64,000 bases of DNA from assembly GCA_019359325.1 (NCBI GenBank), contig JAHHHN010000012.1, forward strand, positions 5,995-69,994, written 5' to 3'. This document shows positions 42,556 to 61,595 of this stretch, piece after piece. Made by a program: the position numbers and the translations under genes. The notes beneath the pieces are model-generated. The model saw nothing but the letters and a program-made list of their open reading frames with translations. It had not been told where the DNA came from and made no database searches. The DNA comes from Mojavia pulchra JT2-VF2. Lineage in GTDB: Bacteria > Cyanobacteriota > Cyanobacteriia > Cyanobacteriales > Nostocaceae. Within the stretch, counting starts at the first letter, position 1; each line of letters starts with the position of its first letter.

Positions 42556-42628
42556 GGGGTTATAGCTCAGTTGGTAGAGCGCTGCAATGGCATTGCAGAG
42601 GTCAGCGGTTCGAACCCGCTTAGCTCCA
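42556..42628 (+). tRNA. tRNA-Ala (anticodon GGC)
   Basis: Cloverleaf folded by hand: acceptor GGGGTTA/TAGCTCC with G3:U70, D-arm GCTC/GAGC, anticodon stem CTGCA/TGCAG with loop ATGGCAT (GGC at 42589-42591), T-arm AGCGG-TTCGAAC-CCGCT, discriminator A73; CCA not encoded. Confidence 0.85.
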
Positions 42629-42660
42629 TCCCTTAATAACTACTATCCCGCATTAAATTT

Positions 42661-42756
42661 TGTGACTTTACCCATAACTTTGCCGCAATGGCAAGCTTAT
42701 GGTTCCAGTAGAAGGCGGCAAAGTTATGGTTCCAATTTCTGGGTAATTTTTAAGCT
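42661..42756. repeat. tnsD-proximal transposon end with ~3 closely spaced TnsB-type binding repeats
   Basis: tgtgactttacccataactttgccgc, aagcttatggttcca, ggcggcaaagttatggttcca. Confidence 0.75.
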
Positions 42757-44232
42757 TCATAACTCAAGTTCGCGATTCGCTTCTCTAAGAGCTAATCTAA
42801 CTTTTTTGTATCGGAAGTACCCTGGTCTGGAAACTAGCTCTGAAACAGCAGATTCAGTAGGATATTTACCCTGATTATGTAGCTCAAAAGCAACTAGTCG
42901 CACTTCCTGGCAGCATTCCTCTATTATTTTCTTATGGTAATCTTTCTGATAGCTGTCATACTTGGCAGAGATAGCACGACATAAATCTGGAAAATGTTTG
43001 TAAATCGTTTTTCTATTAACTTCTAACTGCCTAGCAACTTCCTCCATAGATAAAGGAGGAGACTCATCATTTTTGAGTAGCTCTTCTAAATAGAATTTGA
43101 CTCTCTCAGCATTAAATGGCTTATTCCTTGTTCTTAATGTAGTTTTAGCTTCCGTTGCTCCCAATTTCTTTGAGAGAGATAAATTATTATTTTCTTCGGT
43201 CAAAAAGCTTAGAATTGATACTCCAAAACAGTAACAAATATTTGTCAGTGCTTCAAGAGAAGGTAAATTTTTACCTTTACACCATAGCCAAACTGTATTT
43301 CTGGGAACATTAATCTGACGAGCGAATTCAGCTATATTTCCTTCTGCAATTTGCTCAACCCACTTCGATAGAGTGAGAGCGATTGTAGTAGGAGATAGAG
43401 CATCATTCAAATATGGAGTAGCAGCAATTAATTCTCCAAGAGCCTTAGCAGACCATATTTTCTGCTCTAGCTCATTTTTTTTCAAAGCATTCCTATTAGC
43501 TGATTCTTGGGATAGAATCAGTCCTAACCACTCTCCACATTTTGAACAATATCCTGGTTGCGATCGCCAAGCTAGCGTAGTGTTTTTTTGATGACAATGA
43601 GGACACTCACAAATTAATTGATGGTGGTGATAGGGGCATATTTTTACTACATCTAGCGACCAAAGTAAAGGCTCATAAATTAATTGTTTTTTCTCATACC
43701 ATTCTTGATAACAACTCGGACACCAAGCCCGAACAGAGCGTAGTAAATTTCTAGAAGGGAATAGTTTGTCCCAAGTTAGTAAAGTAAGAAAGCATAAGTC
43801 GTCACGGAGCGTTAATTTCTGTAGAGCTTGAACTAAGTCCTTTGCCATGACACCGCTACCGTTGAGTGCGGTAGTGTAATTATATATTCTGTGTAAATTG
43901 GCACCTCCATACTCTTTGTTAACAAGCGTTGCGAGTTGCTTCTCCATTAAAACCCCTGGATTAACACAATGAGCTTCTGCTAACCGAGATATATAACCAG
44001 TTAAACTTTCCACTAATGGAGTGCCAATACCAACAGGCTGTAATTGATACAAGCGACTACGAGATGGAATAGAAAGCTTTTTTAAATCCCAAGATTCGTA
44101 TGTTTCTAATACACTAGCTAACATCTTGCTGCACTCCGATGGGATCTCTTTTAGGTTTGCGTTTGCCAACCTTTCCTGGCGGACGAGTAGTTTTTGGGGT
44201 TTCTTCGGGTAGCACAATTGGTTTTGCGCCAA
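42757..44232 (-). CDS. tnsD: TnsD-like target selector (TniQ N-terminal domain with Zn-finger plus C-terminal HTH extension)
   Basis: WCPSCYQEW...CPYHHHQLICECPHCHQ zinc ribbon shared with the short TniQ at 48449; C-terminal HTH NIAEFARQINVPRNTVWLWCKG; 5' end overlaps tnsC so true start may be internal. Confidence 0.8.
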   Translation of the reverse strand: MAQNQLCYPKKPQKLLVRQERLANANLKEIPSECSKMLASVLETYESWDLKKLSIPSRSRLYQLQPVGIGTPLVESLTGYISRLAEAHCVNPGVLMEKQLATLVNKEYGGANLHRIYNYTTALNGSGVMAKDLVQALQKLTLRDDLCFLTLLTWDKLFPSRNLLRSVRAWCPSCYQEWYEKKQLIYEPLLWSLDVVKICPYHHHQLICECPHCHQKNTTLAWRSQPGYCSKCGEWLGLILSQESANRNALKKNELEQKIWSAKALGELIAATPYLNDALSPTTIALTLSKWVEQIAEGNIAEFARQINVPRNTVWLWCKGKNLPSLEALTNICYCFGVSILSFLTEENNNLSLSKKLGATEAKTTLRTRNKPFNAERVKFYLEELLKNDESPPLSMEEVARQLEVNRKTIYKHFPDLCRAISAKYDSYQKDYHKKIIEECCQEVRLVAFELHNQGKYPTESAVSELVSRPGYFRYKKVRLALREANRELEL

Positions 44233-45265
44233 GTCCTAATGCAGAGCGTAAGTTTTGTATATCTGTTTCTGTTTCAGATAATTGTCGTTCGCCCTCTTGA
44301 ATTTCCTTGAACATTCTCTGACACTGAGCAACCGACCAAGCACGTTTTTGTAAGTCTTTGAGAGTGATTGTTGTTGCTTCCCGATCCAGAGCATCTTTAA
44401 GAGCGCGTGTTAGCCAATTTTTCAGTATGCCAACACATCCTAATGTACGTTCATAAAAATATTCCCAATGAGTAACTAAATCTGGATGCTCTGCAAGTGG
44501 CATCTGCTGTTGAAAAGTCAACAATACACTTTTAAAAGCCTGTACATCATCTGAATTGTCAGCACAATAACGGCGGAAATGAATATCGACGCTACGGCGT
44601 GAGAGTTGACCGCTCAAGTTACGGAATGTAAGTAGTTCGTATGTTCCTAATAGACAGTGCAAAATGCCTGTCATATTTGCCACAGATTTAAGGCAGTCTA
44701 ATTGATCTTGTAGCTTGTATCCGCTTGCCATCTTGCCAAAATGTTGTGCTTCATCTACAAAAAATACGTCTGGATGACGGTGGATGAGGGCATTTTCTAA
44801 AGCTCTGCGTAGAGCAGGTGCAACTACTTTCGACTCAACATTAATTTTTCCAAAATTATCGCGAGAGATACCACGCACACCATAATCAAACTTGTGATCG
44901 ATTAAGGGTTCCTCTAAGGCGATTAAGGCGCGTGTGTAGTAATCTTTCCAGTTGAAGTTTCTCGATTCTGGGGCTACAGCCTCAACACCAACAACAGGAA
45001 CACGACTGCGATCGCTTTCCAGTTTAGGTAATGCTAGTTCTGTTAATTTCTGCTCAACGCGGAGTCGCAAAGTTGTTTTACCAACACCACTAGCACCGTA
45101 AACAAAGATAAATGAAGCTCCTGCTGGTTCGGCAATCGTTCGCATGAGAATTTCATAGACTTCTTTAAGTCGAGGATGCGCTACGGTGTAATTCTCAAAG
45201 TAAGCAAGCCTTTCTGGAGCAGGTCGTGTGAGGAGTTCAAGCGGAAATCCAGTAGTTGGTGTCAT
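44114..45265 (-). CDS. tnsC: TnsC-like AAA+ ATPase transposition regulator
   Basis: Walker A VYGASGVGKTT, Walker B VFFVDEAQH. Confidence 0.8.
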   Translation of the reverse strand: MTPTTGFPLELLTRPAPERLAYFENYTVAHPRLKEVYEILMRTIAEPAGASFIFVYGASGVGKTTLRLRVEQKLTELALPKLESDRSRVPVVGVEAVAPESRNFNWKDYYTRALIALEEPLIDHKFDYGVRGISRDNFGKINVESKVVAPALRRALENALIHRHPDVFFVDEAQHFGKMASGYKLQDQLDCLKSVANMTGILHCLLGTYELLTFRNLSGQLSRRSVDIHFRRYCADNSDDVQAFKSVLLTFQQQMPLAEHPDLVTHWEYFYERTLGCVGILKNWLTRALKDALDREATTITLKDLQKRAWSVAQCQRMFKEIQEGERQLSETETDIQNLRSALGLGAKPIVLPEETPKTTRPPGKVGKRKPKRDPIGVQQDVS

Positions 45266-45267
45266 AA

Positions 45268-47964
45268 TTAAAACTCCTCATACACTACAAGTGTTTCTGG
45301 GACGATTGCTTCATCTTCAGCCACTTGAGTATCAGTATTTTCAAAAGGAACTTGAATAACCTTTGGTTTTTCGTTACGGCTTGTTGTCGCTTTTCCGCCC
45401 TCAATTACCCTAAAGACTTCCCTAGCTTCTGCATCATAGGAACGCTGTTCTAGTAGAGCTTCTTGTGCCTCTACCGATGCTAAAAATTCTGCTAAATTCT
45501 TAGCTGAAACTTGAGATTGTCGTCCATGATTAGAGGAGCGTTTGCGTAACTCAGCACTAGCTAACTTCAATTCTTTTTCTGAGCGACCTTGGAGTTCTGC
45601 ATAATATTGAGAAATACACTGTACCCACTGTCCTCGAACAAAGGCATAAGCGATACCAATATTAAACGGGTCATATCTTATCTGAACAGAGGTATTTTCA
45701 ATTTGCGGATCGCGAAAACTATTAGACCAGTAGTAGATTGAGTTAATTTTTACGCCGCGTCCTGCTTGAACTTTTGCTTTTCCCTCTGAGGTGGTAGGTA
45801 GGGTAAGAATCTGAAAGTTTTCATCGTAAGGAATCATGCGGTGAATCCGACTACCACCAATCGCCATACCCGCAGCAAACGCATCCCTCGGACTCTGGAA
45901 AAGTGCCGGATGTTCGTCTGTATCGTAAACTTCGTAAGCCCAAGCACAAAGATATTCATAAAGTAAACCAAGTGTCCATACAGCTTGATTTTTAGGGTTA
46001 ACTAACTTGGTGACTTGGCGGACGTTACGAGTTATTTGTGTATTACCAAGTAAGTTATGGACAAATTGAGTATTGGAAGTTCCAAATAGGCGCTCGCAAA
46101 CCGAACCAAAACGAGCTTTGGCTGGGGGTCTTTGCTTTTTTGTACATTCAAAAGTAGCTAGTAGTGTCTCGAAGTAAACGCTGTGAAACTCTGTACCGTT
46201 ATCTACGACTACAATTTGTGGGAGTCTACCATGACGCTTGACACAAATTCTTAGCACCATTAAGCAAGAACGATATGAGGGTGAATCAAACGTTAGGTAA
46301 ACTGCCAGCAATCGCCGTGAGTAAGCATCTACTAAAAATGTTGCCCAAGGTCTGCCAAGATTGCGACCTATACGGGAGCAAACTAGCTCTACATCTAACT
46401 GAGTATGGTCGATATGCCCAATTTCAAAGGGGCGATCGCCGTGTCTTGGGGTAGTTTGGGAAAGTTCCCAATAGAAGGATTCATGCTGGTAAGCGGCACG
46501 CCGACCTTGGCGTTTTTTCGTCTGTTCGTAACCAGTACGGCGTTTTACTTCTTTAGTAAATGCTTTGTAACTCGGAGCAATTACACCAGATTGTTCGCAA
46601 GCTCGAACTAAAGCCCCGTAAACCTCCCACATTCTTTTTTGTTTAAGCGTTTCATAGTCTTCTAAAATAAATTTCTCCATAATTGCTAAGGTGTCTTCCG
46701 GCAGCTTGCGCTGACGATTACCTTTGACACTGCGATGGGACAAAAGCCCAATGTAGCCGCAACCGTATTTTTGATGTGCAGTTAGATATTTAGCTTTCCA
46801 GTCACGAATGGTACGGGCTGGTATTGTTTCGTTTTCTGGGGGATGTCCGTTTAAGTAAGGTTCGATAGTTCTGTAGCGTTCAAGAGCTTCTGCTTGGTCT
46901 TCAGGACTAGCTTGATAAAATCGCTGCCAAGATTCTGTGCTAATAGCTGTTTTTTCTGGTGTTTGGAGACTTGTGATTTTTCCTTGGCGAACCAGATTCT
47001 CAAATATAGCTTTCTTGAGTTCAATTAACTGATTATTTTCTGCGCTAAGTATAACCTCTGTTTCGCCAACATGGATGATATTTAAACCTTTGCCGTCCCA
47101 ACTAACAGGTGTTCCAGTGGCAAGATTGATTACAGGAGAGATAGCCGGAAGATGTACACTTGGCTGCTCAACCATTAATCTATAAGCACTAGCAGTTTGT
47201 TCGTCACGGAAGATGAGACATCTTTCTGGTTCAGCAAGTGGTGCAGCATTTAAATCAAAATAGATTTGCTCTTGAGCAATTAAGGTGTAAATATCGTCAG
47301 ATTTAGCTCCTGTTGGCTGATTGAGTAGTTCTGCTAAAGTGATTCCTGGTTGAGATGACACAATTGCAAGTAATGATTGAGCAATTGTTTCTTCCACTGC
47401 TAGGGATTCTGAGCGATAGTAATCTTCTAAAAATTGCAAATTACGTTGCAGAACCCAGTTTATTTCTCTATCTGAACGAATGCGGTAATAAAGCCCAAAC
47501 TGGTTAGCATATACTTCTCCTGGCGGACAATGCCATTGATTATCTTCTTGAGAGCAAAAGTAACGATTGGGGTTTTTCTCTGCTAATTTTTTCAAATCCT
47601 GCTCAGTTTTACACTCTTCCCAACCAGCCGAATTAGTTCGGATGACAAAGAAATCTGGGGTTTGTAAAACGCCTAATCTACGTCCGTTACTTGCTTGATA
47701 GTCAAGTTTAATTTGCGGTGGTTGATCGTAGAATTCTAGAACATCTTCATCATGTTCTAACTGATAGATAATTGGCAGTTCAACTCGATGAGACTCAAAT
47801 TGAATCGTGACTCCCATCTTGCGACTAGGGTAGCGTCCCGAAACATTTTTACTACCGCCACCAACCCGGCGGGATGGTTCAGATGTGCGGACTTTCTCAA
47901 TAATTTTTTGCCCTGCCTCGGATATTTGAAGGCAAGCAACCCATTGTTCAAATTGCTCTTTCAT
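45268..47964 (-). CDS. tnsAB: TnsA-TnsB fusion transposase (N-terminal PD-ExK TnsA-like endonuclease domain + DDE TnsB transposase)
   Basis: N-terminal ...TPDFFVIRTNSAGWEECK (PD...ExK) within first ~200 aa; central DDE region HIDHTQLDV...VVVDNGTEFHS; 898 aa. Confidence 0.8.
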   Translation of the reverse strand: MKEQFEQWVACLQISEAGQKIIEKVRTSEPSRRVGGGSKNVSGRYPSRKMGVTIQFESHRVELPIIYQLEHDEDVLEFYDQPPQIKLDYQASNGRRLGVLQTPDFFVIRTNSAGWEECKTEQDLKKLAEKNPNRYFCSQEDNQWHCPPGEVYANQFGLYYRIRSDREINWVLQRNLQFLEDYYRSESLAVEETIAQSLLAIVSSQPGITLAELLNQPTGAKSDDIYTLIAQEQIYFDLNAAPLAEPERCLIFRDEQTASAYRLMVEQPSVHLPAISPVINLATGTPVSWDGKGLNIIHVGETEVILSAENNQLIELKKAIFENLVRQGKITSLQTPEKTAISTESWQRFYQASPEDQAEALERYRTIEPYLNGHPPENETIPARTIRDWKAKYLTAHQKYGCGYIGLLSHRSVKGNRQRKLPEDTLAIMEKFILEDYETLKQKRMWEVYGALVRACEQSGVIAPSYKAFTKEVKRRTGYEQTKKRQGRRAAYQHESFYWELSQTTPRHGDRPFEIGHIDHTQLDVELVCSRIGRNLGRPWATFLVDAYSRRLLAVYLTFDSPSYRSCLMVLRICVKRHGRLPQIVVVDNGTEFHSVYFETLLATFECTKKQRPPAKARFGSVCERLFGTSNTQFVHNLLGNTQITRNVRQVTKLVNPKNQAVWTLGLLYEYLCAWAYEVYDTDEHPALFQSPRDAFAAGMAIGGSRIHRMIPYDENFQILTLPTTSEGKAKVQAGRGVKINSIYYWSNSFRDPQIENTSVQIRYDPFNIGIAYAFVRGQWVQCISQYYAELQGRSEKELKLASAELRKRSSNHGRQSQVSAKNLAEFLASVEAQEALLEQRSYDAEAREVFRVIEGGKATTSRNEKPKVIQVPFENTDTQVAEDEAIVPETLVVYEEF

Positions 47965-48137
47965 ATAGTCCTTACTAAGCGCTTTGCGCTTGATTTTATG
48001 AATCTATCAAAATCAGACCATAAAGTTAGGAACTTGTTTACCTGATGCTATACTGCTTAACTTTATAACACTTATAGTGTGCAAAAAACCACTGATAGTA
48101 GGTAGATTTAACAGCGATACTGCTTCAGTATTGTTTT

Positions 48138-48398
48138 GTGACACAGAAACACTTCAGTATTGAGTACCGCTTTGGCAAAGCGATTAGGCGGCGAAGGCGA
48201 GAGCTAGATTTATCCCAAGAAGAACTGGCTGAAAAGTCAGGGCTTCACCGCAACTACATCTCAGGTATCGAAAACGGAGAGCGTAACCCTTCGTTAAAAA
48301 ATATTGTTAAGTTAGCGGCAGCTTTGGAGATATCTGTCTCCGCTCTCTTTGTTAATTACGGCATTGAGGTTAAAAGTGAATCGGAAACTAATTCCTGA
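48138..48398 (+). CDS. XRE-family helix-turn-helix transcriptional regulator (86 aa), divergent from tnsAB and upstream of tniQ
   Basis: LSQEELAEKSGLHRNYISGIENGERNPSLKNIVKLAAAL HTH_XRE signature. Confidence 0.75.
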   Translation: MTQKHFSIEYRFGKAIRRRRRELDLSQEELAEKSGLHRNYISGIENGERNPSLKNIVKLAAALEISVSALFVNYGIEVKSESETNS

Positions 48399-48448
48399 AA
48401 TTTGGCTGTTAAAACTAAAATACTAGCCTTTAGGTTAATCCCAGAGGG

Positions 48449-49438
48449 ATGACTATTTACTCAGAAAATTGGAACCTAAAACCTCCAGAAATCCCGCAAC
48501 GGAGTCGGTTATTTTCTCTTGAACCTGTGGCTGTGGGAGCTCCCTATGCAGAAAGTCTTAGTAGCTATCTCCATCGTCTAGCGCAGGCGCATTGTTTAAG
48601 CTCTCAAAAGCTCGTTATGGGAGAAATTGCGCCACTTATTCTCAAAGATGAGGATAAATCTGAGCTATTAGAACAAAATCTAAGTCACCTATTAGGAAAT
48701 AGCGACGCTAAACCTGCTATCAACGGAATGCGAGAAATGACAGGAAAGTTAGTCACTGTCTTAGAAGAGTTAACAATGCGTCAGGATTTACGCTTTTTGA
48801 CCCTTTTAAGCTGGAAAGGAATGATTTATGACAAGGGGTTATTTCGGAACTATCGCGCTTGGTGTCCTTGTTGTTGGCAAGAGTGGAAGCAGGAGAACAA
48901 AACTATTTATGAACCATTATTATGGTCATTTAAGGATGTAGAATTTTGTTTGATTCACAAACAGCGATTAATAGAAGAATGTCCTCATTGTGGTTCGCGT
49001 TTACCTGTGATGGCTAGGCTTTCACCTGCGGGATTTTGCTCTCGTTGTTACGGGTGGTTAGGACAGGAAATTAAAGGCGAAGAGGAAATAGAGAAATATC
49101 AAATTAATATTCAAGGAATTAGCGAATTAATTACACTTACTCCCCAATTAGGATATAAACCCATCCCGATTGAGTTAACCCGAAAATTACAATTGATTTT
49201 GTTAGTGTTTGAACAAGCAATTGGAAAGGATGTGAAGTTATTGGGAGATTTAGGGGGAATCATGGAATCGTTGAGGATAGCCTCAACAAGAAATCAAAGT
49301 CAACCTTATCATTTGGTGAAGTTGATTATTCCTGTGTGCGAGAAGGCGAAGATTACTGTATCCCAGCTGTTTGGGTCAGATTTTAAGGAATTGGGCAAGA
49401 TATTGTTCGGTAATTTTAGTCTGGAATTAAAGTTATAG
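48449..49438 (+). CDS. tniQ: Short TniQ-family protein (Cascade-associated targeting factor)
   Basis: N-terminal 200 aa align closely with the tnsD product (RSRLFSLEPVAVGAPYAESLSSYLHRLAQAHC; WCPCCWQEW...CPHCGSRL) but lacks the C-terminal HTH extension. Confidence 0.8.
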   Translation: MTIYSENWNLKPPEIPQRSRLFSLEPVAVGAPYAESLSSYLHRLAQAHCLSSQKLVMGEIAPLILKDEDKSELLEQNLSHLLGNSDAKPAINGMREMTGKLVTVLEELTMRQDLRFLTLLSWKGMIYDKGLFRNYRAWCPCCWQEWKQENKTIYEPLLWSFKDVEFCLIHKQRLIEECPHCGSRLPVMARLSPAGFCSRCYGWLGQEIKGEEEIEKYQINIQGISELITLTPQLGYKPIPIELTRKLQLILLVFEQAIGKDVKLLGDLGGIMESLRIASTRNQSQPYHLVKLIIPVCEKAKITVSQLFGSDFKELGKILFGNFSLELKL

Positions 49439-50045
49439 AAGTTTAGTATAAATAAAGATTTATGCTTAAAGGAGTTTAGAAGAGAAGAGACAATTGCTTT
49501 CCTAGATCGGTTCAGTCTGTGATTTTTGTATGGTTATACGACATTTATCATAAGTTAGCAGTTAAATTGGATAAGTACCTTTTGCTCCTTCACAACTGCG
49601 ATCGCCAATATAAACACCAACGATTTTTCGTGTGTTGACATCCTTATATTTTTACTGGGGCGATCGCACTCTTGCCCCCTCACGCAGCCCAATCTTTACA
49701 CAGCAATTCTGCCTGTTGCAGCACTGTCACCATCGCTTTCTCCTGCTTTTCTGGTGGATGTCGTATTTCCGAAGTAAAAGCTTGACTAATGGGCGGAAAT
49801 GTAGTTAAACGCTTTATGTGTCCAGTCGATAATAACGTTGCAGCGAACTGTTTCTACAAGGTCACGAGCGATTGCTACTACGAGAAACAATTATTATAGA
49901 TTCACTCTGTTTACAAATTCAGAGAAATGGCGGCAATATAGTGATTTGTAACTAAGATTAAGTGTCATCGAAAGCCATCACAAAAACTGCTGGAAAAATA
50001 GTTGACGCAGCAGATACCCCTTAGGGGTAAGATAAATTTTCGCTT

Positions 50046-51503
50046 ATGAGTACCACGACCTACGACCTAATTGCCAAGCTCTGGAATCTCTGTAACGTCC
50101 TCAAAGATGATGGCGTGACGTATCACCAATACGTTATTGAACTGACGTACCTGCTGTTTCTGAAGATGGCGAAAGAGACCCGCACTGAAAACCTGCTTCC
50201 AGAGGGTTATCGGTGGGACGATCTGGAAGGCAAGGCAGCAAATGAGCGTCTGGATTTTTACAAATTGCTGTTGATCCACCTTGGTAGTCGCGGTTCCACA
50301 CTTGTTAAAGAAATTTTTGCCAACGCCAATTCCTCTATCAACAAGCCCAATACACTTTCTACACTAGTTACTGAGATTGACAAGCTTGACTGGTATAGCG
50401 CCCGGCAAGAAGGATTGGGCGACGTGTATGAAGGGCTGCTGGAGAAGAACGCTAATGAAAAGAAATCCGGTGCTGGTCAGTACTTTACACCCCGTCCGCT
50501 GATCGATAGTATGGTGCATGTTATGCGCCCTACGTTGAAGGATGTTATTCAAGACCCCGCAGCAGGAACAGGCGGTTTTTTAATCGCCGCCAATCGCTAC
50601 ATACGCGAAAACAGTGACCCGGATATCTGGACAGAAAAACAGCAACGCAAGTACCGTAGCAATACCTTCTACGGTATGGAGCATGTGCAGGACACGCACC
50701 GTCTGGCTTTAATGAATCTAATGCTGCATGGGCTAGAGTTTGACCCGCAAGGGGCAGGTATCCGCTACGGCGATACGCTTTCGCCAGAGGGAGAAGCATT
50801 GCCGAAAGCAACGCTGATCCTTACCAATCCACCTTTCGGCTCCAAGAAAGGGGGTGGTCTACCTACTCGCAAAGACTTCACTTTTTCTACCAGTAATAAA
50901 CAATTTTGCTTTCTGCAACACATTTATGGTGGTCTCAAGCCTGGTGGTCGTGCTGCGGCAGTTTTTCCAGACAGTGTGTTATTTGACAGCAATGTCGGTA
51001 AGCAGATTCGCACTGAATTGATGGAAAAGTGCAACCTACATACCATCTTGCGCCTACCAAGTGGTATTTTTTATGCTCCAGGTGTTAAGACTAACGTGCT
51101 GTTTTTCACACGTGGTAAAAAAGAAAACGGTAATACCCAAGAAGTTTGGGTATACGATCTGCGTACTAACATATCGCAGTTTGGCAAGCGAACTCAACTT
51201 ACACGTAAGCACTTTGCCGAGTTTGAAGTTGCCTTTGGCGATGACCCTCTTGGTATGCCAGAAAGTCTTGCCAAGCGTGTAGATACTGGCGAGCAAGGGC
51301 GTTTTAGAAGATTTACCCGTGATTTGATCGCCAAACGCGGTGAAAACTTGTATATTGCTTGGCTTAAGGATGAAAACGAAGAGAATAATAGCAAACTCAC
51401 CGAACCAGAGTTGCTTGTACAAGAAGCGATGAGTGAACTGGAAGCTGCTCTGACAGAATTGCAGGAAATTCTAGAGGAGTTGGGTGAGGAGATTGAAGCA
51501 TGA
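50046..51503 (+). CDS. hsdM: Type I restriction-modification N6-adenine DNA methyltransferase subunit
   Basis: HsdM N-terminal domain, AdoMet motif DPAAGTGGFL, catalytic NPPFG. Confidence 0.9.
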   Translation: MSTTTYDLIAKLWNLCNVLKDDGVTYHQYVIELTYLLFLKMAKETRTENLLPEGYRWDDLEGKAANERLDFYKLLLIHLGSRGSTLVKEIFANANSSINKPNTLSTLVTEIDKLDWYSARQEGLGDVYEGLLEKNANEKKSGAGQYFTPRPLIDSMVHVMRPTLKDVIQDPAAGTGGFLIAANRYIRENSDPDIWTEKQQRKYRSNTFYGMEHVQDTHRLALMNLMLHGLEFDPQGAGIRYGDTLSPEGEALPKATLILTNPPFGSKKGGGLPTRKDFTFSTSNKQFCFLQHIYGGLKPGGRAAAVFPDSVLFDSNVGKQIRTELMEKCNLHTILRLPSGIFYAPGVKTNVLFFTRGKKENGNTQEVWVYDLRTNISQFGKRTQLTRKHFAEFEVAFGDDPLGMPESLAKRVDTGEQGRFRRFTRDLIAKRGENLYIAWLKDENEENNSKLTEPELLVQEAMSELEAALTELQEILEELGEEIEA

Positions 51504-53164
51504 GTGAGCTTCCAGATGGGTGGATCATGACTCCGCTTGAGGATCTCGGCAACTGGGGTAGTGGAGGAACCCCCAAGAGAACTAATCCACGTTTCTATGT
51601 GAACGGTACTATCCCGTGGCTTGTCATTGGAGATCTAAATGACGGAATAGTTACGTATGCCCAAACCCACATTACTGAGGAGGGACTACTTAATAGCTCA
51701 GCACAACTTTTACCACCAAAAACATTGCTAGTTGCCATGTACGGTTCTATCGGCAAACTTGGCATTACTGGTATCACATGTGCAACAAATCAGGCAATCG
51801 CATTTTGCTGTACATATCAGGAAGTTATAGAACTGCGCTACCTATTCCACGCACTCAAAAATGCTAGGGATCTATTGGTTGCTAAAGGGCAGGGAGGAGC
51901 CCAACAGAACATAAACCAAACTATTCTAAAGGCTCATCAGATTCCGCTAGCCCCCCTCAACGAACAAAAACGCATCGCCGATAAGCTCGATGTCCTGCTG
52001 ATGCGGGTAGATGCCTGTCAAGAGAGACTAGATCGTGTGCCGCGCATTCTCAAACGTTTCCGCCAAAACATTCTTGATTTAGCAGTATCGGGAAAGCTAA
52101 CGGAAAGCTGGCGAGAAGACAATACTGTCAGAATCAGTAACACAGTTGAATTAATACAGATCGAACCTATAGGTGATTTTCTTAGTGCAATCAATTCGCT
52201 TGATTATGTTATTCCTGATGGTTGGGTATGGCTCAATCCTGACTTAATTAAATTTTCTGAAAAGCACTCACTTTCAATTGGTCCATTCGGAAGCAACCTG
52301 ACTGTTAAAGATTATAGAGATGCAGGTATTCCATTGGTATTTGTGCGAGATATACGCAGGAAAAATTTTGGTAACGAAACAACAAAGTTTATAAGTGAAC
52401 AAAAAGCTCAAGAACTATGGGCACATAGAGTCGAACCCGGTGATCTACTAATTACTAAAATGGGTGATCCACCCGGAGATGTCGCAGTCTTCCCTCTAGA
52501 TAGACCTATTTCAGTGATTACAGCCGATTGTATACGGATAAAAGTTAATCCTGAAATAGTAAGTATAAAACTGTTGTCACTGTTTATCGAGAGTAGTTTG
52601 ATTAGATCGCTAATAAAGGAGATAACTGCTGGCGTTGCCCAACAAAAAATAAGCTTGCAAAGATTCCGTTCTATGCCCCTACCTATTCCGCCACTTGATG
52701 AACAGCAAGAAATTGTTCGTCGTGTCGAATCGCTGTTCGCTTATGCTGATCGCCTCGAAGCCCACTATCAAGCCGCCTGTACTCAGATCGAGCGTTTAAC
52801 ACCAGTACTCTTGGCTAAAGCCTTTCGTGGCGAACTCGTACCCCAAGACCCCAATGATGAATCAGCATCTGTGCTGTTGGAGCGGATTCACGCTGAGCGA
52901 GCAGCACAACCCGCCAAAGCTAAGAGAGACATAACTTCTAGAAAACCAGCCATGACCAAAATGACCAAAGAATCTGTCAAAGAAGCAATTCGGCAATTAC
53001 CTCAGAACAAATTTTCATTCGATGAACTGCGTGAAAACCTCACTGGTGATTATGACTCACTAAAAGATATCCTGTTTACACTCCTCAGTGAAGCCAAGCC
53101 AATTCTTACCCAGGTCTTCGATCAAGAGGAGCAAGCGATGCGTTTTTTTCGGGCAGGCAAATGA
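51500..53164 (+). CDS. hsdS: Type I restriction-modification specificity subunit (two target recognition domains)
   Basis: Conserved HsdS central and C-terminal coiled regions (LPPLDEQQEIVRRVESLFAYADRLEA...LAKAFRGELV) flanking two variable TRDs; start overlaps hsdM stop. Confidence 0.85.
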   Translation: MSELPDGWIMTPLEDLGNWGSGGTPKRTNPRFYVNGTIPWLVIGDLNDGIVTYAQTHITEEGLLNSSAQLLPPKTLLVAMYGSIGKLGITGITCATNQAIAFCCTYQEVIELRYLFHALKNARDLLVAKGQGGAQQNINQTILKAHQIPLAPLNEQKRIADKLDVLLMRVDACQERLDRVPRILKRFRQNILDLAVSGKLTESWREDNTVRISNTVELIQIEPIGDFLSAINSLDYVIPDGWVWLNPDLIKFSEKHSLSIGPFGSNLTVKDYRDAGIPLVFVRDIRRKNFGNETTKFISEQKAQELWAHRVEPGDLLITKMGDPPGDVAVFPLDRPISVITADCIRIKVNPEIVSIKLLSLFIESSLIRSLIKEITAGVAQQKISLQRFRSMPLPIPPLDEQQEIVRRVESLFAYADRLEAHYQAACTQIERLTPVLLAKAFRGELVPQDPNDESASVLLERIHAERAAQPAKAKRDITSRKPAMTKMTKESVKEAIRQLPQNKFSFDELRENLTGDYDSLKDILFTLLSEAKPILTQVFDQEEQAMRFFRAGK

Positions 53165-54786
53165 AGCTTTTAAGGGTTCACATCATTTATGCTAAAACTT
53201 GCGGGGGGCTACTTGATGGACTGAACTTACAGTTACGAAGTCCATTTAGTGGCTATTCTGGGTTTGATCCTTTATGTCTTATTGGTCCGAATGGCGCAGG
53301 AAAATCTCAATTCTTGCAAGTGCTAACAGAAATTTTTCAGTCTGTTTTCCACACATGCCTTCCCAATGAAGAACGTTCCGAAGGGCCAGACTTGCATTTC
53401 GAGCTTGAGTACCTCATTCACCCAGAAGATGAGCAGCTACCTGTCCGTGTCCGCATTTCACGGAAAGCCAGTCGTAAAAATCGTCCAAGCCTTGTAATTG
53501 AGCGGAGAGATGAAGATGAATACGACTGGATAGAATGTGACCTCAAAGCTCCTGAAACCCATAAACTTTTACCTCAAAAGATTGTTGGCTATACGTCAGG
53601 CGATAATGAAACGCTTAGTTTGCCGTTCCTCTTAAGTCGCAGTGGGTACGCGAAGGATGTAACCGAAAGTGCATTACACGAGCCAAAACGCGTTCCCGAT
53701 ACTCGGCTAATGCTGATTGACTATGGAACGCACCTTGAAGTTTTTGTGGCAAATCTCCTGTTGGGTGATGCTTCCCAGTGGGATTTTCTGCTACAGGATG
53801 CAAAACTGCAAAACCTGCACTCATTTCGTTGCATAGTCCAACTTGCACACAGTGCAGCCCCGAAGATTCCAAGTAGGAGAGGCTCACAAAGTACGCGAAA
53901 AGGAATACAACTTACCAAGGAACTGGAAGATTATCTCGATCAGCTCCAACGTTGCGCTACCTGCTACACCTATGACGATAAAACAGAGACGTATACCTTT
54001 GACTATTGGATAAATGACCAGACAAGAGAAGCGTTTCGCTCCTTTTGGAACAACACGCTTGATTTGTACTCGTCATTCCACAAGTTCGCAATGTTAAACG
54101 ACTTGGTACTTCCCAAGAAAACCCGTGAGCGGTTTCGGAAAGACACCAAATCGAGAAGGTTTGCTTCACGTCTTCCAGAGCCTCAGGATGAAGATAAGGT
54201 TTTCCGATTTGAAAGCGTTATGTTTACTGCTCAAAGGACTGGCAAAGAGGTAGACTACGTATCGCTTTCCGATGGCGAGCATCAGCTTGGGCAGATTCTT
54301 GGAACATTTTGTATGTTGTCATTTCCTAATGTACTTTTCCTGCTTGATGAGCCTGAGTCGCATTTCAATCCGCTATGGCGGGTGAAATTCATTTCACGCA
54401 TATTGGATCTGCCTACTACACATGGCGATCGCAGAGAATCAGCTAAAGCTACTGAACAAGAGTGCTTACTAACAACACACTCGCCTTTCGTCCCCTCTGA
54501 TATGCATAGAGACAAAGTTTTTATTTTTAGCAAAGACGAAGAAGGGAAGATTCAAGTCCAAAATCCTAATATTGAGACATTTGGCACTACATTCGACACA
54601 ATCATTGAGGAATGCTTTAACGTTCGCCCGCCTATGTCACAAGTTCCTCATGATGAGATTAAAAGGCTTATGGAGAGTGAAAATCCCGAAGAGATTAGGG
54701 CAGGGATGCAGCATCTAGGTGATTCTGTTGAGAAAGCATTTCTTGTTGATCGACTGTTGCAGCTAACAAATAGGGATGAGGTGTAG
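53161..54786 (+). CDS. ABC/SMC-like ATPase of the AAA_15/AAA_21 type (Septu PtuA-like) translationally coupled to hsdS
   Basis: Walker A LIGPNGAGKSQ, signature-like LSDGEHQ, Walker B LFLLDEPESHFNP, H-loop LLTTHSP; ATGA overlap with hsdS stop. Confidence 0.7.
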   Translation: MKLLRVHIIYAKTCGGLLDGLNLQLRSPFSGYSGFDPLCLIGPNGAGKSQFLQVLTEIFQSVFHTCLPNEERSEGPDLHFELEYLIHPEDEQLPVRVRISRKASRKNRPSLVIERRDEDEYDWIECDLKAPETHKLLPQKIVGYTSGDNETLSLPFLLSRSGYAKDVTESALHEPKRVPDTRLMLIDYGTHLEVFVANLLLGDASQWDFLLQDAKLQNLHSFRCIVQLAHSAAPKIPSRRGSQSTRKGIQLTKELEDYLDQLQRCATCYTYDDKTETYTFDYWINDQTREAFRSFWNNTLDLYSSFHKFAMLNDLVLPKKTRERFRKDTKSRRFASRLPEPQDEDKVFRFESVMFTAQRTGKEVDYVSLSDGEHQLGQILGTFCMLSFPNVLFLLDEPESHFNPLWRVKFISRILDLPTTHGDRRESAKATEQECLLTTHSPFVPSDMHRDKVFIFSKDEEGKIQVQNPNIETFGTTFDTIIEECFNVRPPMSQVPHDEIKRLMESENPEEIRAGMQHLGDSVEKAFLVDRLLQLTNRDEV

Positions 54787-55870
54787 GATGCTGTTTGGGT
54801 ATCCCGTTTCGGCAACAGCGGAAAATTGGCTTCACGAATGCTTACGCGAGATTCTGTGTTCAATTCATACAAGCCTAAAAGCAGCAGCCACTCTGCCAGC
54901 ATGGCCTGAAATTATTCCAGCGCAATACCGAAAAAGGTTGGAAAAACGCCGAGGGCTGGAAGATAGGTTGAATAATTACAAGACAGCTTTAGAAAAGCTT
55001 ACCACCGCAGAACAGAACCGAATTCTTCAAGCATTCCATGACCAAAATCAGATTGATCTTCTCTTGTCTTGCCAATTGAACTGTGAAGCTATCGGTGATT
55101 TGCCAGAAGTCATTCATGAGCCAGTAAAAAAACTTTTTGAATTTGGGTTTGAACTTCTCACAAAACTGGAAATCCGCGATAAGCACTACAAGGTAATTTA
55201 TGATGCGGCTCCCTCTCATACATGTCCTTTCTGTGGGTGTGAGTACTTTGATGCACCAGAAGCACCCCGTGAAGCATTGGATCATTACCTGGCAGAAAGC
55301 AAATACCCATTTGCTGCTTCAAATTTGCGTAACCTTGTTCCAATGGGAAATAAATGTAACTCTCGCTACAAACTTGCGAAGGATATTCTCTTGAGGAATG
55401 ACGGCACTCGTCGCAAATCGTTTGACCCTTACAACTGTACAGGAATCAGACTCTCTCTCGAAAACAGTCAGCCTTTTGCTGGTACACTTGCACCAACTGG
55501 TCAACTACCGCGATGGCAAATCGAGTTTGGCCCAAACACTGAAGAGGTGATTACTTGGGATGAAGTGTTCCATATCAGAGAACGATATGAAAGAGACGTG
55601 CTAAACGCTGAATTTATAAGTTGGCTAAGGTATTTCCAGTCTTGGTGCAAATCTGCGAAAATTGCGCCTAGTTCTGACCAAGAATTGATGGATGCGCTCA
55701 ATCGTTGTGCAACCCACTGCGAAGAGATGGGGATTAGCGATCGCGCGTTCTTAAAAGCCGCTGTATTCCGAATGTTGCACACACATTGCCAGCAAGGTGA
55801 TCAACGACTTATTTCATTGATCATGAGTATTGTGAACCCAGGACAAACCAATTTGCGGCAAGCCCCGTAA
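54776..55870 (+). CDS. HNH-family nuclease (Septu PtuB-like) overlapping the ATPase gene end
   Basis: HTCPFCGC...ALDHYLAESKYP...NLVPMGNKCNSRYK = Cys pair, His, Asn-Asn of HNH motif. Confidence 0.65.
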   Translation: MRCRMLFGYPVSATAENWLHECLREILCSIHTSLKAAATLPAWPEIIPAQYRKRLEKRRGLEDRLNNYKTALEKLTTAEQNRILQAFHDQNQIDLLLSCQLNCEAIGDLPEVIHEPVKKLFEFGFELLTKLEIRDKHYKVIYDAAPSHTCPFCGCEYFDAPEAPREALDHYLAESKYPFAASNLRNLVPMGNKCNSRYKLAKDILLRNDGTRRKSFDPYNCTGIRLSLENSQPFAGTLAPTGQLPRWQIEFGPNTEEVITWDEVFHIRERYERDVLNAEFISWLRYFQSWCKSAKIAPSSDQELMDALNRCATHCEEMGISDRAFLKAAVFRMLHTHCQQGDQRLISLIMSIVNPGQTNLRQAP

Positions 55871-55972
55871 ACTAAATCAATTTTGACGCGATCGCTTTTA
55901 TCCTACATCCTCATAGTTTGTAAACTGTAGTAGCCCAAAATTCTACTATTTGTTTACTGGTGTAGCTATTAT

Positions 55973-56266
55973 ATGAGCGATAAGGGTAAAAAAGAAACAA
56001 AAATGTATATTTATATTACAGATGTTGTATTCGTTGCTTGGAATAAAGACAGAGGAGAGCTTTTAAAGCGATTGCGTGGGAAAAAATCGCGGCAGAAACT
56101 AGCTGATGAAATTGCAGCCAAGGGAGGTGAATGCTCCCATCAAAACATTAAAAAACTAGAGTATGGTGAGTCTGAAAGTGTTTCTATAAAAGTATTAGAG
56201 GCTATTTGTGCTGCATTGAATATTTCTCTGAGCGACTTCCTTAGCGTTGTAGAAGTGACTCATTAA
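55973..56266 (+). CDS. XRE-family HTH regulator (97 aa)
   Basis: SRQKLADEIAAKGGECSHQNIKKLEYGE...LEAICAALNISLSDFL HTH signature. Confidence 0.65.
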   Translation: MSDKGKKETKMYIYITDVVFVAWNKDRGELLKRLRGKKSRQKLADEIAAKGGECSHQNIKKLEYGESESVSIKVLEAICAALNISLSDFLSVVEVTH

Positions 56267-56317
56267 AGTTTTGGATATCTTCTTGCTTTTTAGCTACTAA
56301 AGTTACTAATATATCTT

Positions 56318-56701
56318 ATGAAATCAAAAAGGCGATCGCCCTCCGGCAAGAGAAATGCGATCGCCTTTTGTTCAACCCCGTTAATGAGGTCACTCATGAT
56401 GATTGTACAAGATGACTTTAGCAACTCAGCCTTGGCTGAATCAGAGTTTGAGGAATATATTGACCACCTGGCCGACCCAGTAGCACCAGAAATTGAAATT
56501 GACTCAGTAGCAGATGACTTGGGTGAACTGTATCGAGTCTGGAATGGTTCTCAACTACTTGGCACTTTCTACCAAAATCTGGAAAGTAAATGGATAGCAC
56601 AACCCTGTAATAGCGATGACAGGCAATGCTGTGACACTCCTTTGGCAGCGCAAATAATCATCATCGCTGTTAATGGCTTACTTGTAGCCGACGTAGCATA
56701 A
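56318..56701 (+). CDS. Hypothetical acidic protein (true start probably internal, ~100 aa)
   Basis: ORF only; N-terminal 20 codons contain two HIP1 sites and look non-coding. Confidence 0.3.
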   Translation: MKSKRRSPSGKRNAIAFCSTPLMRSLMMIVQDDFSNSALAESEFEEYIDHLADPVAPEIEIDSVADDLGELYRVWNGSQLLGTFYQNLESKWIAQPCNSDDRQCCDTPLAAQIIIIAVNGLLVADVA

Positions 56702-56893
56702 CACACAAAGCATTTATCCCATCGACTTGGAGAGGTGATTCAATCACCTCTCTTTTTTGTATGCTTTGTCAAGTTCACTTTCTAGAAATGCACTGGCTCT
56801 TTGAGAACAGTTTTCTCGCAAAGCAGCAACTCTGACAACCTTCCAGCGCATAATTTCTTCTCTACATTCATCAAGCTGCTTGATTCGCCCTAG

Positions 56894-57076
56894 TTTGAGC
56901 AACGCCTAACGGCATCAAGCCACGAATCACAAATTTGTCTACCCCGTTCGTACCATTCTTCTCTATTTTGAGCAACGCCTAACGGCATCAAGCCACGAAT
57001 CACCTGCAAAAAAGGAATTTGTGCTTGTTGAGACCCGTACTTGAGCAACGCCTAACGGCATCAAGCCACGAATCAC
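56894..57076. CRISPR. CRISPR mini-array: 3 x 37-bp repeats ([T/C]TTGAGCAACGCCTAACGGCATCAAGCCACGAATCAC) at 56894-56930, 56967-57003, 57040-57076 with two 36-bp spacers
   Basis: Direct reading; third repeat differs at its first base. The array lies ~250 bp downstream of cas5 on the minus strand, so it is probably transcribed on the minus strand (repeat then reads GTGATTCGTGG...GTTGCTCAAR). Confidence 0.85.
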
Positions 57077-57324
57077 AGCAAAGCTGAAAATCCTTAACTG
57101 AGGAAGGCTCATTTACAATCTTACAAGTACCTTCCAGATCAAGAAACCAAAAACTCAAAACCTACCAAAGTTTCCCTTATTTTCAGCCCCTCAAACCCAG
57201 TGCTGATCAACTTTTCCAAAAATAGCAAGCACCTTTTTCCTTGCCTCAATTCCCATATCCCTTACCGTGTAAACCTTGCCGCCATTCTTTTACCCTGAAT
57301 TCCCTTTCCAATAAGAGATACTTG

Positions 57325-57963
57325 TCAAATTGGAGATTGAATCATCGTCCACGCCAAATCAGGAGGAGGTGAGCTTGACATTTCCTCAATCCGATACCTC
57401 AAAAATCGGGTATTTCTTGACCCCACATGGTCAACCCAATAGGGTAAGGTTAACCTACCTCGATTATCCCTAATTACCCACTGTCTCACCCCCCCAAGAT
57501 AATCTTGGGAGACAAGTTTGATTGATTTAATCAACTGATCACTTTCTCCTAAAAATAAACAACCAAATCGTCTTACTAGCTCAGGATGGTCAAACGCTAA
57601 CTGTATCCTCTCCCTTAAACTTGGTTGTATTTTCTCCCCCTCAGAACGAACCCAAATCAAACACTTGAGATTAGACAAAATTTCTTGATAACCGGGAATA
57701 ACATTCTCTGGATGGCTAAAATCAGCATTTTTAAACCGTCTCATTTGACGCAAAATTCGCGACTTTTTGGGGCTAGATAACATTGCGATCGCCAATTCTA
57801 CCCCACAGTGGCGATAAACATCCGTTTCCCCTACCAAAGACAACAACATCCCATACACTGTTGCTGGAGATGGGACAGGATAGGTTTTTCCCATTTCTCT
57901 TGCATGGGACTCCCGAAAAGTCGCAAAGGGAACATCCAAATAGAGAATTAATGGTGCAATCAT
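57325..57963 (-). CDS. cas5: Cas5 (type I Cascade subunit)
   Basis: N-terminus MIAPLILYLDVPFATFRESHAREMGKTYPVPSPATVYGMLLSLVGE is the Cas5 RAMP signature. Confidence 0.75.
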   Translation of the reverse strand: MIAPLILYLDVPFATFRESHAREMGKTYPVPSPATVYGMLLSLVGETDVYRHCGVELAIAMLSSPKKSRILRQMRRFKNADFSHPENVIPGYQEILSNLKCLIWVRSEGEKIQPSLRERIQLAFDHPELVRRFGCLFLGESDQLIKSIKLVSQDYLGGVRQWVIRDNRGRLTLPYWVDHVGSRNTRFLRYRIEEMSSSPPPDLAWTMIQSPI

Positions 57964-58928
57964 TTTGATTCTTCTAAGCCCAAATCTCTTTTAATGACTG
58001 TTTTCAAGTCTTCAATCAGTTCATTTCGATTACGATAAATATGCGCCTTATTAAAAGTGGAATTCTCAAAATTATCCAATTCCTGTAACTCTTTGACCAT
58101 TGTTCCCCCAATCCACAATTGGCTAGGGTCAATCTGTCCGCATTCCACTTCATCGATAAATTCTTTTGTAAATTTTGCTTCCTTACTCTTAGGCTCACAA
58201 TATTCAAAGCAATAGGAAATGTATGAAGCAAAATTATTTGTCCATTGCAATACCAAACTATCGGGACAGAAAGGATAGTTAAAAATATTGCTACTCCCTC
58301 CTACCTTGGGTAATTCCATAATCCCATCTATCAGAGGTAAAATCCGCGAATAGTTTTTGAGATGAGTGGCATTAATTCCAAAATAATATTGATATCGAGT
58401 TGCGTGATATTCTGTAATATGGAGCGATGTACTATCCTTTTCCCTGCCACTTTTCGCCCCTAACTTGACTGCACCATCATAAGGCGTTAGCGAAACAGCC
58501 ATATTCATCGCTAAAGCACCAATTCGCTGATTAGGAGTGCTGGTTTTTTTTTGTTTCTTTTTTCTCTTTGTTGTTGAAGTCTCCTCCTCTGTCTCCGCAG
58601 ACTCTAATAAAGCAAACCCAAAAATATCATCATCATAAAATTGTTCTGGATCAAAATCTTCACTTGTTAACCGATTAATATGTTCATCTTCATCCCAAAC
58701 TCGATTAACTAAATAACCTTGCTTTTGAAGATAAAAGCGTAACGCCCAACGAATCGCGCTAGAACCTACAAAAGAATGAATTTTACCATTCCAATAGCCT
58801 TTTTGTAGAATAGTTTTATTTCCTCGTCTGATGTCATGATTTAAGGAGGCTAACCCATAACGAGTGAGGACTGTTCCGTAAAGATAATAATTGGGGATAT
58901 TATTGTCATTCTTCTTCTGACTCATCAT
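57960..58928 (-). CDS. cas7: Cas7 (type I-B Cascade backbone subunit)
   Basis: YLYGTVLTRYGLASLNHD...GSSAIRWALR N-terminus and glycine-rich thumb; 322 aa; start overlaps cas8 end. Confidence 0.75.
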   Translation of the reverse strand: MMSQKKNDNNIPNYYLYGTVLTRYGLASLNHDIRRGNKTILQKGYWNGKIHSFVGSSAIRWALRFYLQKQGYLVNRVWDEDEHINRLTSEDFDPEQFYDDDIFGFALLESAETEEETSTTKRKKKQKKTSTPNQRIGALAMNMAVSLTPYDGAVKLGAKSGREKDSTSLHITEYHATRYQYYFGINATHLKNYSRILPLIDGIMELPKVGGSSNIFNYPFCPDSLVLQWTNNFASYISYCFEYCEPKSKEAKFTKEFIDEVECGQIDPSQLWIGGTMVKELQELDNFENSTFNKAHIYRNRNELIEDLKTVIKRDLGLEESK

Positions 58929-60537: not shown

Positions 60538-61148
60538 ATCATTTTTCGTTTCCCGCCAATTCCCTGTTCTTGCAACGTTAAGGAATCTTCTGGGTTGAGT
60601 GAGCTAATTTTTATGCCAAATCCTCTAACTTTAAACTGTTTCCCTTTTTGATTGATGGTTAATTGTCTTTTTTGAGGTGTTCCATCTTGTCGGGTAAGAA
60701 GTTCAATTTTTCCTTGTATTCCTTTATTATCCAGTTGCCGTTGCACAGCTTCAATAAAGTTAGTCGAGTCTTGAAAACCTGTAATTATGACTAATCTGGA
60801 ATAGACACTTTCTGAAGAAATTAACGGTTTGTAGTCGGGAATATCTAGTTGATAAGAATTTTGACCTATGTGAAAAGCTTGACCTGCTAAATAAAGATAA
60901 ATTAAAGGAATTTGTTGATGATGAATCCGAATTTTGAGGCGAGATTGAGCAGTAAGTTCAAGCAAATTATTTCTTGTCGGTATTCCAGCAATCGGATGAA
61001 TACCAATAGACTCTAGTTCGTGAAGGATAGGACAAATCCTGCACAATGCGCTATAGATAACATAACCATTATCAAGAGGAATCGGTGCGCCTCTGAGCTT
61101 AAACGTTAAGTCTACATATTCCTCACTTTGAATTAATATGGCTGCCAT
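60486..61148 (-). CDS. cas6: Cas6 crRNA endoribonuclease
   Basis: C-terminal glycine-rich loop GIGGKRKMMCGIFVP and ferredoxin-like N-terminus; 220 aa. Confidence 0.75.
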   Translation of the reverse strand: MAAILIQSEEYVDLTFKLRGAPIPLDNGYVIYSALCRICPILHELESIGIHPIAGIPTRNNLLELTAQSRLKIRIHHQQIPLIYLYLAGQAFHIGQNSYQLDIPDYKPLISSESVYSRLVIITGFQDSTNFIEAVQRQLDNKGIQGKIELLTRQDGTPQKRQLTINQKGKQFKVRGFGIKISSLNPEDSLTLQEQGIGGKRKMMCGIFVPATRSKEEEET

Positions 61149-61419
61149 AGATGGAAATTTCGAGAAAAATTTAAAGATGGCAGAGTTTGTTTAATACATC
61201 AACATTCTCTTGTGCAAAATTGCTCTCATTGTCATCGCCAACTAATTTGGTTAGACTAGCAATCCAGTTTAGGCTATTGTTCGCAATGTTCTCAATGGTT
61301 AGGAGGATATTATACTACTCCAGTAGTTACTCACAACAGTTCGATAGCCGAAAGTCTCTATCCCATACCAGCATGAACCGCTTCTGCTCCCTTCTAAAAA
61401 AATCCGGCGCTTTCCTGCT

Positions 61420-61595
61420 TTCTATGCTTAATTGGACTCACGGCAAGCTTATCCTTCCAACTGGGACTTGCGGCAAATTTATGGTTCCAAACTGGCAATT
61501 GCATCCAAAATTAGCTGACGCAAGAATGAGGGTTATAGTGACATTGACGGCAAAGTTATGGTTCCAGTAGCGGCAAAGTTATGGGTAAAGTCACA
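61420..61595. repeat. cas6-proximal transposon end with 4-5 dispersed TnsB-type repeats (cggcaagcttatccttcca, gcggcaaatttatggttcca, gacggcaaagttatggttcca, gcggcaaagttatgggtaaagtcaca)
   Basis: Direct reading; terminal 26 bp exact inverted repeat of 42661-42686. Confidence 0.75.

Follow-up and report, generated by a model that had tools for sequence, protein, structure and literature searches.

CRISPR-associated transposons (CASTs) of type I-B2 have been known since 2021 to select their targets with two proteins, TnsD and TniQ, and structures determined with cryo-electron microscopy exist. In PmcCAST (Tn7744), the type I-B2 CAST found in Nostoc sp. 'Peltigera membranacea cyanobiont' 210A, and in McCAST, TnsD and TnsABC insert the element downstream of a tRNA gene, and TniQ, together with Cascade and a CRISPR RNA (crRNA), directs RNA-guided insertion; both selectors act via a TnsC heptamer (PMC11915506, PMC9881144, PMC11406308). 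The expression of TniQ lowers the TnsD pathway (PMC9881144). Here, we describe an element of this kind in a 64,000-nucleotide stretch of the genome of the cyanobacterium Mojavia pulchra JT2-VF2 (hereafter the window, to which all coordinates refer). The 18.9-kb segment at 42661-61595, which starts 32 bp past the 3' end of a tRNA-Ala(GGC) gene, is very probably an intact Tn7-like transposon that belongs to the PmcCAST family of type I-B2 CASTs and in which two paralogous selectors feed one TnsC/TnsAB machinery.

The element and its closest relatives

A scan of one genome per species yielded 63 loci, onto all of which the window proteins were mapped; one of them, L021, is the locus of the PmcCAST host. 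The gene order is identical here and in PmcCAST: the tRNA gene, the left end, tnsD-tnsC-tnsAB, xre-tniQ on the other strand, the cargo, the CRISPR array with cas5-cas7-cas8-cas6, and the right end. TnsAB, TnsC, the XRE protein, and TniQ are 92-94% identical between the two elements, the end repeats are alike, and both elements are inserted approximately 30 bp downstream of a tRNA gene. In contrast, TnsD is only 49% identical (455 amino acids here vs 462 in PmcCAST), the adjacent gene is tRNA-Ala(GGC) rather than tRNA-Val(TAC), and the cargo and spacers differ. The features of the element that bear on this comparison are as follows.

42556-42628, plus strand: tRNA-Ala(GGC), the attachment-site gene (ARAGORN; Rfam tRNA, 65.9 bits).
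42655-42660: left copy of the AAATTT flanking repeat, the target-site duplication, read from the sequence (right copy at 61596-61601).
42661-42736: left (tRNA-proximal) transposon end, with the terminal repeat TGTGACTTTACCCATAACTTTGCCGC at 42661-42686 and two internal TnsAB-site-like repeats in the opposite orientation at 42690-42709 and 42715-42736 (repeat search).
42757-44124, minus strand: tnsD, 455 amino acids, with a TniQ core containing two zinc ribbons, an XRE-like helix-turn-helix (HTH) domain, and a TnsD-only C-terminal HTH/helical domain (Pfam TniQ and weak HTH matches).
44114-45265, minus strand: tnsC, AAA+ adaptor, 383 amino acids (Pfam AAA_22 and TniB; 92% identical to the PmcCAST locus L021).
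45268-47964, minus strand: tnsAB, fusion transposase, 898 amino acids (Pfam TnsA N and C domains, rve, and Mu-transpos_C; PDB 9BW1_M over 1-898, 1911 bits).
47965-48137: divergent control region between tnsAB and xre, 173 bp, with the palindromes ACACTtatAGTGT at 48068-48080 and ATACTGcttCAGTAT at 48117-48131, conserved in a 19-locus alignment.
48138-48398, plus strand: xre, an 86-amino-acid Cro/C1-type HTH protein (Pfam HTH_3, E = 3.9e-20; PADLOC Control_protein, E = 1.9e-20).
48449-49438, plus strand: tniQ, 329 amino acids, by homology the Cascade-coupling selector (full 1-329 alignment to TniQ of PDB 8FCU_P/8FCV/8FF4, E = 1.6e-208).
56858-57076, minus strand: CRISPR array, with three 37-nt repeats, GTGATTCGTGGCTTGATGCCGTTAGGCGTTGCTCAAA, at 56890-57076 and two 36-nt spacers (repeat search and sequence).
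57325-61148, minus strand: cas6-cas8-cas7-cas5, with a putative cas11 inside cas8, the nuclease-less type I-B (Myxan) Cascade operon (NCBIfam Cmx6, Cmx1/Csx13, DevR, and DevS).
61434-61595: right transposon end, with four TnsAB-site-like repeats in a single orientation and the terminus ...GCGGCAAAGTTATGGGTAAAGTCACA, followed by AAATTT at 61596-61601 (repeat search, TRF, and sequence).

Both the protein architecture and the ends are those of a type I-B2 element. TnsA and TnsB are joined in one polypeptide, and the attachment site lies 3' of a tRNA gene with the left end proximal, the tRNA species being unlike that of the type element. The 26-bp terminal repeat that starts at 42661 has a perfect inverse copy finishing at 61595. 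The left end carries three TnsB-site repeats in both orientations and the right end carries four, a Tn7-like arrangement; left-end sites in both orientations have been described for the same clade (PMC9881144). The left end is near-identical across all related loci. A target-site duplication of 5 bp is expected, and six nucleotides are identical at the two flanks. The tRNA gene was the sole match in an Rfam scan of 42000-62500. Just outside the right end, at 61600-61650, the sequences TGTGGCAACTTATGCTTG and TGTCACAAAATCGCAGTTTATGCTTG resemble decayed end repeats of another Tn7-like element and look like the remnant of one that formerly occupied the same tRNA site; no match to them was found among the fetched loci.

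Other described systems share parts of this organization. Type I-D CASTs (McCAST, Tn7575, and CyCAST, Tn7745) also have TnsA and TnsB fused, pair a tRNA-targeting TnsD with a small TniQ that couples to Cas proteins, and carry sites of both orientations at the left end (PMC9881144, PMC10293859). However, they use Cas10d/Cas7d/Cas5d, whereas the proteins encoded here are of the I-B/Myxan type (Cmx1, Cmx6, DevR, and DevS) and the TniQ belongs to the I-B2 clade. The cutoffs of the NCBIfam I-MYXAN models were exceeded for Cas6, Cas8, and Cas5, and Cas8 and Cas7 matched PDB 8FCJ over nearly their full lengths (1068 and 683 bits, respectively). Assignment to type I-D was rejected because the Cas proteins are I-B/Myxan by NCBIfam. 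The type I-B1 CAST (AvCAST, Tn7743) and Tn7 follow a common logic with this element, in which a safe site on the chromosome is served by TnsD and mobile targets by a second selector, but in those systems TnsA and TnsB are separate, the attachment site is at glmS, and the C-terminal architecture of TnsD is different.

Judging from its sequence, this copy appears to be active, with full-length core open reading frames (ORFs) and intact ends and duplication. An alternative is that the element is a fossil that is no longer mobile, and an array of just two or three spacers, the targets of which were not found in plasmid or phage collections, would be in keeping with such a state. We consider this rather unlikely, given that none of the nine core ORFs is shortened compared with its solved orthologue, the terminal repeats form a perfect inverted pair of 26 bp, and the flanking duplication has been preserved.

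TnsD, its paralog, and the exchange of the tnsD cassette

An initial annotation of the sequence had described two TniQ-family paralogs, a long TnsD adjoining tnsC and a short TniQ divergent from tnsAB, and the ORF coordinates and strands agree with this arrangement. Both products scored above the gathering cutoff of 27 for Pfam TniQ (PF06527; 65.9 and 77.1 bits), and BLASTP aligned them with 40% identity and 57% positives over 250 amino acids (E = 6e-56). The zinc-ribbon motifs are AWCPSCYQEW in one and AWCPCCWQEW in the other, with ECPHC in both proteins, and eight zinc ligands (C139, C142, C167, H170, C178, C181, C197, and C200 in TniQ) are invariant in both family alignments. Taken together, the alignment, the Pfam matches, the motifs, and the invariant ligands mean that the paralogy is real, far beyond chance.

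The same annotation had placed the likeness in a collinear N-terminal domain with a double zinc ribbon. The motifs and zinc ligands are indeed shared, but the collinearity is not restricted to the N-terminus: hhalign paired TniQ 6-310 with TnsD 10-310 (probability 100%), and in a Foldseek comparison, the TnsD model aligned with the solved PmcCAST TniQ (8FCU_P) over 325 columns with a TM score of 0.74, normalised by the target. The resemblance therefore extends beyond the zinc ribbon, and TniQ, which corresponds to approximately the first 315 residues of TnsD, contains a counterpart of the first XRE-like HTH/helical domain of TnsD. The TnsD model, predicted with AlphaFold2 with a pLDDT (predicted local distance difference test) score of 83.5, also matched Cro/C1-type HTH domains (C.BclI, ClgR, and DdrO) in Foldseek.

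A C-terminal HTH extension had been assigned to the long copy only, and this part of the description holds. The TnsD-only module spans approximately residues 335-455 and comprises a second HTH (Pfam HTH_11/TetR_N-like matches) and long C-terminal helices, preceded by a disordered linker at 312-333. The length of 491 amino acids given for the protein does not hold. The maximal ORF, opened by TTG at 42757-44232, does encode 491 amino acids, overlapping tnsC by 119 nt with its first 36 codons within tnsC, but M37 of this ORF (MLASVLETYESW) is where gene callers put the start on the identical public contig and where every homologue and the PDB chain begin, which gives the 455-amino-acid protein whose numbering is used here. 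Over its full length, TnsD is 49% identical to its PmcCAST counterpart, the structure of which was solved together with TnsC on DNA (PDB 8V32_J); it also aligns end to end with the TnsD of 9BW1, and it is predicted to be the selector for the tRNA-Ala attachment site.

The difference from PmcCAST is concentrated in this gene. At the DNA level, the element matches PmcCAST at 86-99% identity between 44011 and 49438 but at only 52-63% over 42811-44010, and the identity rises again in the terminal repeats. This sharp drop means that tnsD is a bounded cassette. It is an exchangeable specificity cassette that has been swapped relative to PmcCAST, and the remaining backbone is more than 90% identical. 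When TnsD class and tRNA were compared in 21 related loci, the class of TnsD sorted perfectly with the adjacent tRNA gene:

TnsD of 455 amino acids (at least 84% identical to the window protein): tRNA-Ala(GGC); the window, L013, L050, and a fragment in L034.
TnsD of 462 amino acids: tRNA-Val(TAC); PmcCAST and its relatives.
TnsD of 465 amino acids: tRNA-Val(GAC); the remaining loci.

In all these loci, the insertion lies 30-32 bp from the 3' end of the tRNA gene, despite differences in the host sequence between the two. The published distance for TnsD-directed insertion is 29 +/- 1 bp (PMC9881144).

Some related loci (L024, L026, L034, L035, L038, L043, and L050) hold damaged or tandem elements, with tnsAB, tnsC, or tniQ split or truncated in some and a frameshifted tniQ in L050. 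In L034, a TnsAB-site-like remnant is present at 3409-3440, between the tRNA gene and the element.

In type V-K and most I-F3 CASTs, homing is crRNA-guided. If this were also the case at the tRNA site here, the long protein could be a transcription factor, as the annotations of its homologues ('TetR family transcriptional regulator' and 'transcriptional regulator with XRE-family HTH domain') would have it, and the degenerate fourth repeat in the array would be compatible with such homing. However, none of the three spacers, including a possible third, matched the window outside the array or the fetched loci, and the lack of a match in the window indicates that homing is guided by protein and not by crRNA. 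Furthermore, the long protein has a complete TniQ core, is encoded by the terminal gene of the tnsAB-C-D operon, and has an orthologue that was solved in a TnsD-TnsC-DNA complex, and the identity of the tRNA follows the TnsD class, not the content of the array. We therefore regard crRNA-guided homing to this site as very improbable and TnsD as the predicted selector.

TniQ, its partner, and the divergent control region

Over the full length of TniQ, identity to its PmcCAST counterpart, which was solved bound to Cascade (8FCU), is 93% (tblastn to L021), and this identity suggests that TniQ couples Cascade to TnsC in this element too. The AlphaFold2 model of TniQ, built from a 26-sequence alignment, was too poor (mean pLDDT 61) and was excluded from the fold search.

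The distance between the end of tniQ and the nearest cas gene (cas5, 57963-57325) is 7.9 kb. The separation of approximately 8 kb had been noted in the initial annotation as unusual; the distance is as measured, but a separation of tniQ from the cas genes is normal for the family because PmcCAST (L021) and approximately 30 other loci share the divergent layout, in which tnsD-tnsC-tnsAB is followed by xre-tniQ on the opposite strand. In these loci, the cas genes run convergently, at a distance past tniQ that ranges from 1.7 kb to more than 10 kb and varies with the cargo only. The gap could be taken as a functional uncoupling, with the short TniQ serving a selector other than Cascade, such as a cargo-encoded partner, as the cas operon does not adjoin tniQ and TniQ cores pair with varied partners (PMC10293859). 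Nevertheless, PmcCAST shows the same separation and yet its TniQ-Cascade complex has been solved, the distance is set by the cargo alone, and wherever the contig is long enough (L018, L032, L034, L041, and L046), it carries an I-B cas operon that is convergent and accompanied by the same CRISPR repeat. A partner other than Cascade thus has very little probability. The idea that the short tniQ arose by truncation of tnsD, is decaying, and lacks a function of its own, as its approximately 126 fewer residues and missing C-terminal HTH module might suggest, can practically be dismissed: the protein aligns from 1 to 329 with the functional PmcCAST TniQ, a length of exactly 329 amino acids is retained in more than 50 clusters of homologues as distant as 69% identity, in which 60-odd columns, every zinc ligand among them, are invariant, and tniQ comes with an upstream gene and a start of its own.

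TniQ proteins of the same clade (70-91% identical) are encoded directly after tnsC in L018, L029-L031, L036, L040-L042, L044, and L046. These elements have a second layout, a collinear tnsAB-tnsC-tniQ without xre, and their TnsAB is only 43-45% identical, which indicates that the Cascade-coupling TniQ has moved between distant TnsAB backbones. This layout is consistent with the module exchange described previously (PMC9881144).

The division of labour that we propose for the two selectors, and the complexes that they would form, are taken from the published work on PmcCAST. TnsD (455 amino acids) would bind the tRNA-Ala(GGC) gene via its C-terminal HTH domains and nucleate TnsC, after which TnsAB would insert the element, left end first, approximately 30 bp downstream of the tRNA gene. 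TniQ (329 amino acids), which has the same core without the last ~120-140-amino-acid DNA-binding module, would dock on the crRNA-loaded I-B Cascade (Cas6/Cas8/Cas11/Cas7/Cas5), and the complex of the two would recruit TnsC at protospacers for RNA-guided insertion. Dual-pathway targeting of this kind, with TnsD for the protein-guided tRNA site and TniQ with Cascade for crRNA-guided sites, had already been suggested for the locus, and the two proteins are close orthologues of those for which it has been demonstrated experimentally and structurally in PmcCAST (PMC11915506, PMC9881144, PMC11406308; 8FCU, 8V32). This reading is correct but describes a known system; what distinguishes the element is the TnsD class found at tRNA-Ala(GGC), a gene that this TnsD presumably recognizes.

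The gene preceding tniQ does encode an XRE protein, as had been proposed. It resembles the control (C) proteins of restriction-modification systems (PADLOC), and the gene is present directly upstream of tniQ, 91-97% conserved, in all loci with the divergent layout. The palindromes ACACTtatAGTGT and ATACTGcttCAGTAT in the spacer between tnsAB and xre are candidate XRE operators, and the protein probably represses the divergent tnsAB-C-D and xre-tniQ promoters. Small transcription factors encoded inside a CAST beside the transposition or targeting genes are also known from I-F3 CASTs (the Xre-family regulators RtaC and RtbC) and V-K CASTs (CvkR) (PMC11406308, PMC9938897). The XRE protein here shares with these regulators its small size and its position in the element; for the I-B2 XRE protein, the evidence consists of its conservation and the nearby palindromes. 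No second copy of ACACTTATAGTGTGCAAAA was found elsewhere in the element, and the palindrome ATACTGNNNCAGTAT occurred at chance level outside the intergenic region, so co-regulation of the cas operon by XRE is unsupported.

We tentatively propose that one conserved I-B2 backbone has been naturally retargeted among tRNA-Val(TAC), tRNA-Val(GAC), and tRNA-Ala(GGC) by replacement of the tnsD cassette, from approximately codon 40 to just inside the left end, and that the xre-tniQ unit, transcribed apart from tnsD, balances the competing selectors; this combined proposal is plausible, although we would not call it probable. Several points weigh against the account of the element as a whole. The association of the 455-amino-acid TnsD with tRNA-Ala was seen in four loci only. 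The model of TniQ itself was poor, and structural statements on this protein rest on the solved orthologue. No protospacer for the three spacers was found in the plasmid or phage collections searched, and the copy could be silent or immobilised. A promoter scan detected no consensus sigma-70-like promoter in the tnsAB-xre spacer, and a literature search found no paper on the XRE protein of I-B2 elements, which makes the regulatory step the weakest link.

The value of the element is modest and practical: a backbone more than 90% identical to that of PmcCAST is paired with a TnsD of a presumably different specificity, tRNA-Ala(GGC). With the two tRNA-Val classes, it could help to define how TnsD proteins of this kind read tRNA genes and whether tnsD cassettes can be swapped to retarget protein-guided insertion. 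Should cassette retargeting and the xre switch both prove true, a single backbone with three natural TnsD/tRNA pairs, combined with 8V32, would offer a map of the DNA-recognition code of these TnsD proteins, and I-B2 CASTs would have a previously uncharacterised regulatory switch. The conserved XRE protein upstream of tniQ is a candidate regulator of a system relevant to engineering, and it has so far been unaddressed in the literature found.

CRISPR-cas genes, cargo, and other observations

Residues 406-543 of Cas8, its C-terminal 138 residues (58906-59322, minus strand), matched the separate Cas11 chain of 8FCJ, which suggests that cas11 is translated internally within cas8, as in PmcCAST. 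No cas3, cas1, cas2, or cas4 was found in the element, and all other ORFs of at least 80 amino acids within 42661-61595 were accounted for. The CRISPR repeat GTGATTCGTGGCTTGATGCCGTTAGGCGTTGCTCAAA is also present in related loci. At 56821-56893 (minus strand), a degenerate fourth repeat, with approximately 19 of 37 matches by eye, follows the possible third spacer CTAGGGCGAATCAAGCAGCTTGATGAATGTAGAGAA.

Between tniQ and the array lies the cargo, which the initial annotation had called a restriction cargo.

50046-55870, plus strand: cargo of four overlapping genes, encoding a type I methylase (PADLOC MTase_I, E = 1.5e-203), a type I S subunit, a PtuA-like AAA ATPase (E = 2.7e-46), and an HNH-like PDC-M62B/M01B/PtuB-like protein.

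A cargo is present at this place, but as a restriction system it is incomplete: no HsdR was detected within the element (PADLOC and Pfam), and the methylase and specificity genes are accompanied by PtuA-like and HNH-like proteins. From these matches, the cargo departs from a classical type I restriction-modification system and is best described as a Septu-like pair linked to a methylase/specificity pair.

Just past the trailer end of the array, at 55973-56701 (plus strand), there is a second small XRE-like gene (97 amino acids) and an unannotated ORF of 101-127 amino acids. Homologues with 81-84% identity are present in L007 and L031, although not in every I-B2 locus. At the start of the window, positions 1-242 consist of 11.5 copies of a 21-nt tandem repeat, GGAACTCGGAAGTTCGTGTTT, which is unrelated to the transposon.

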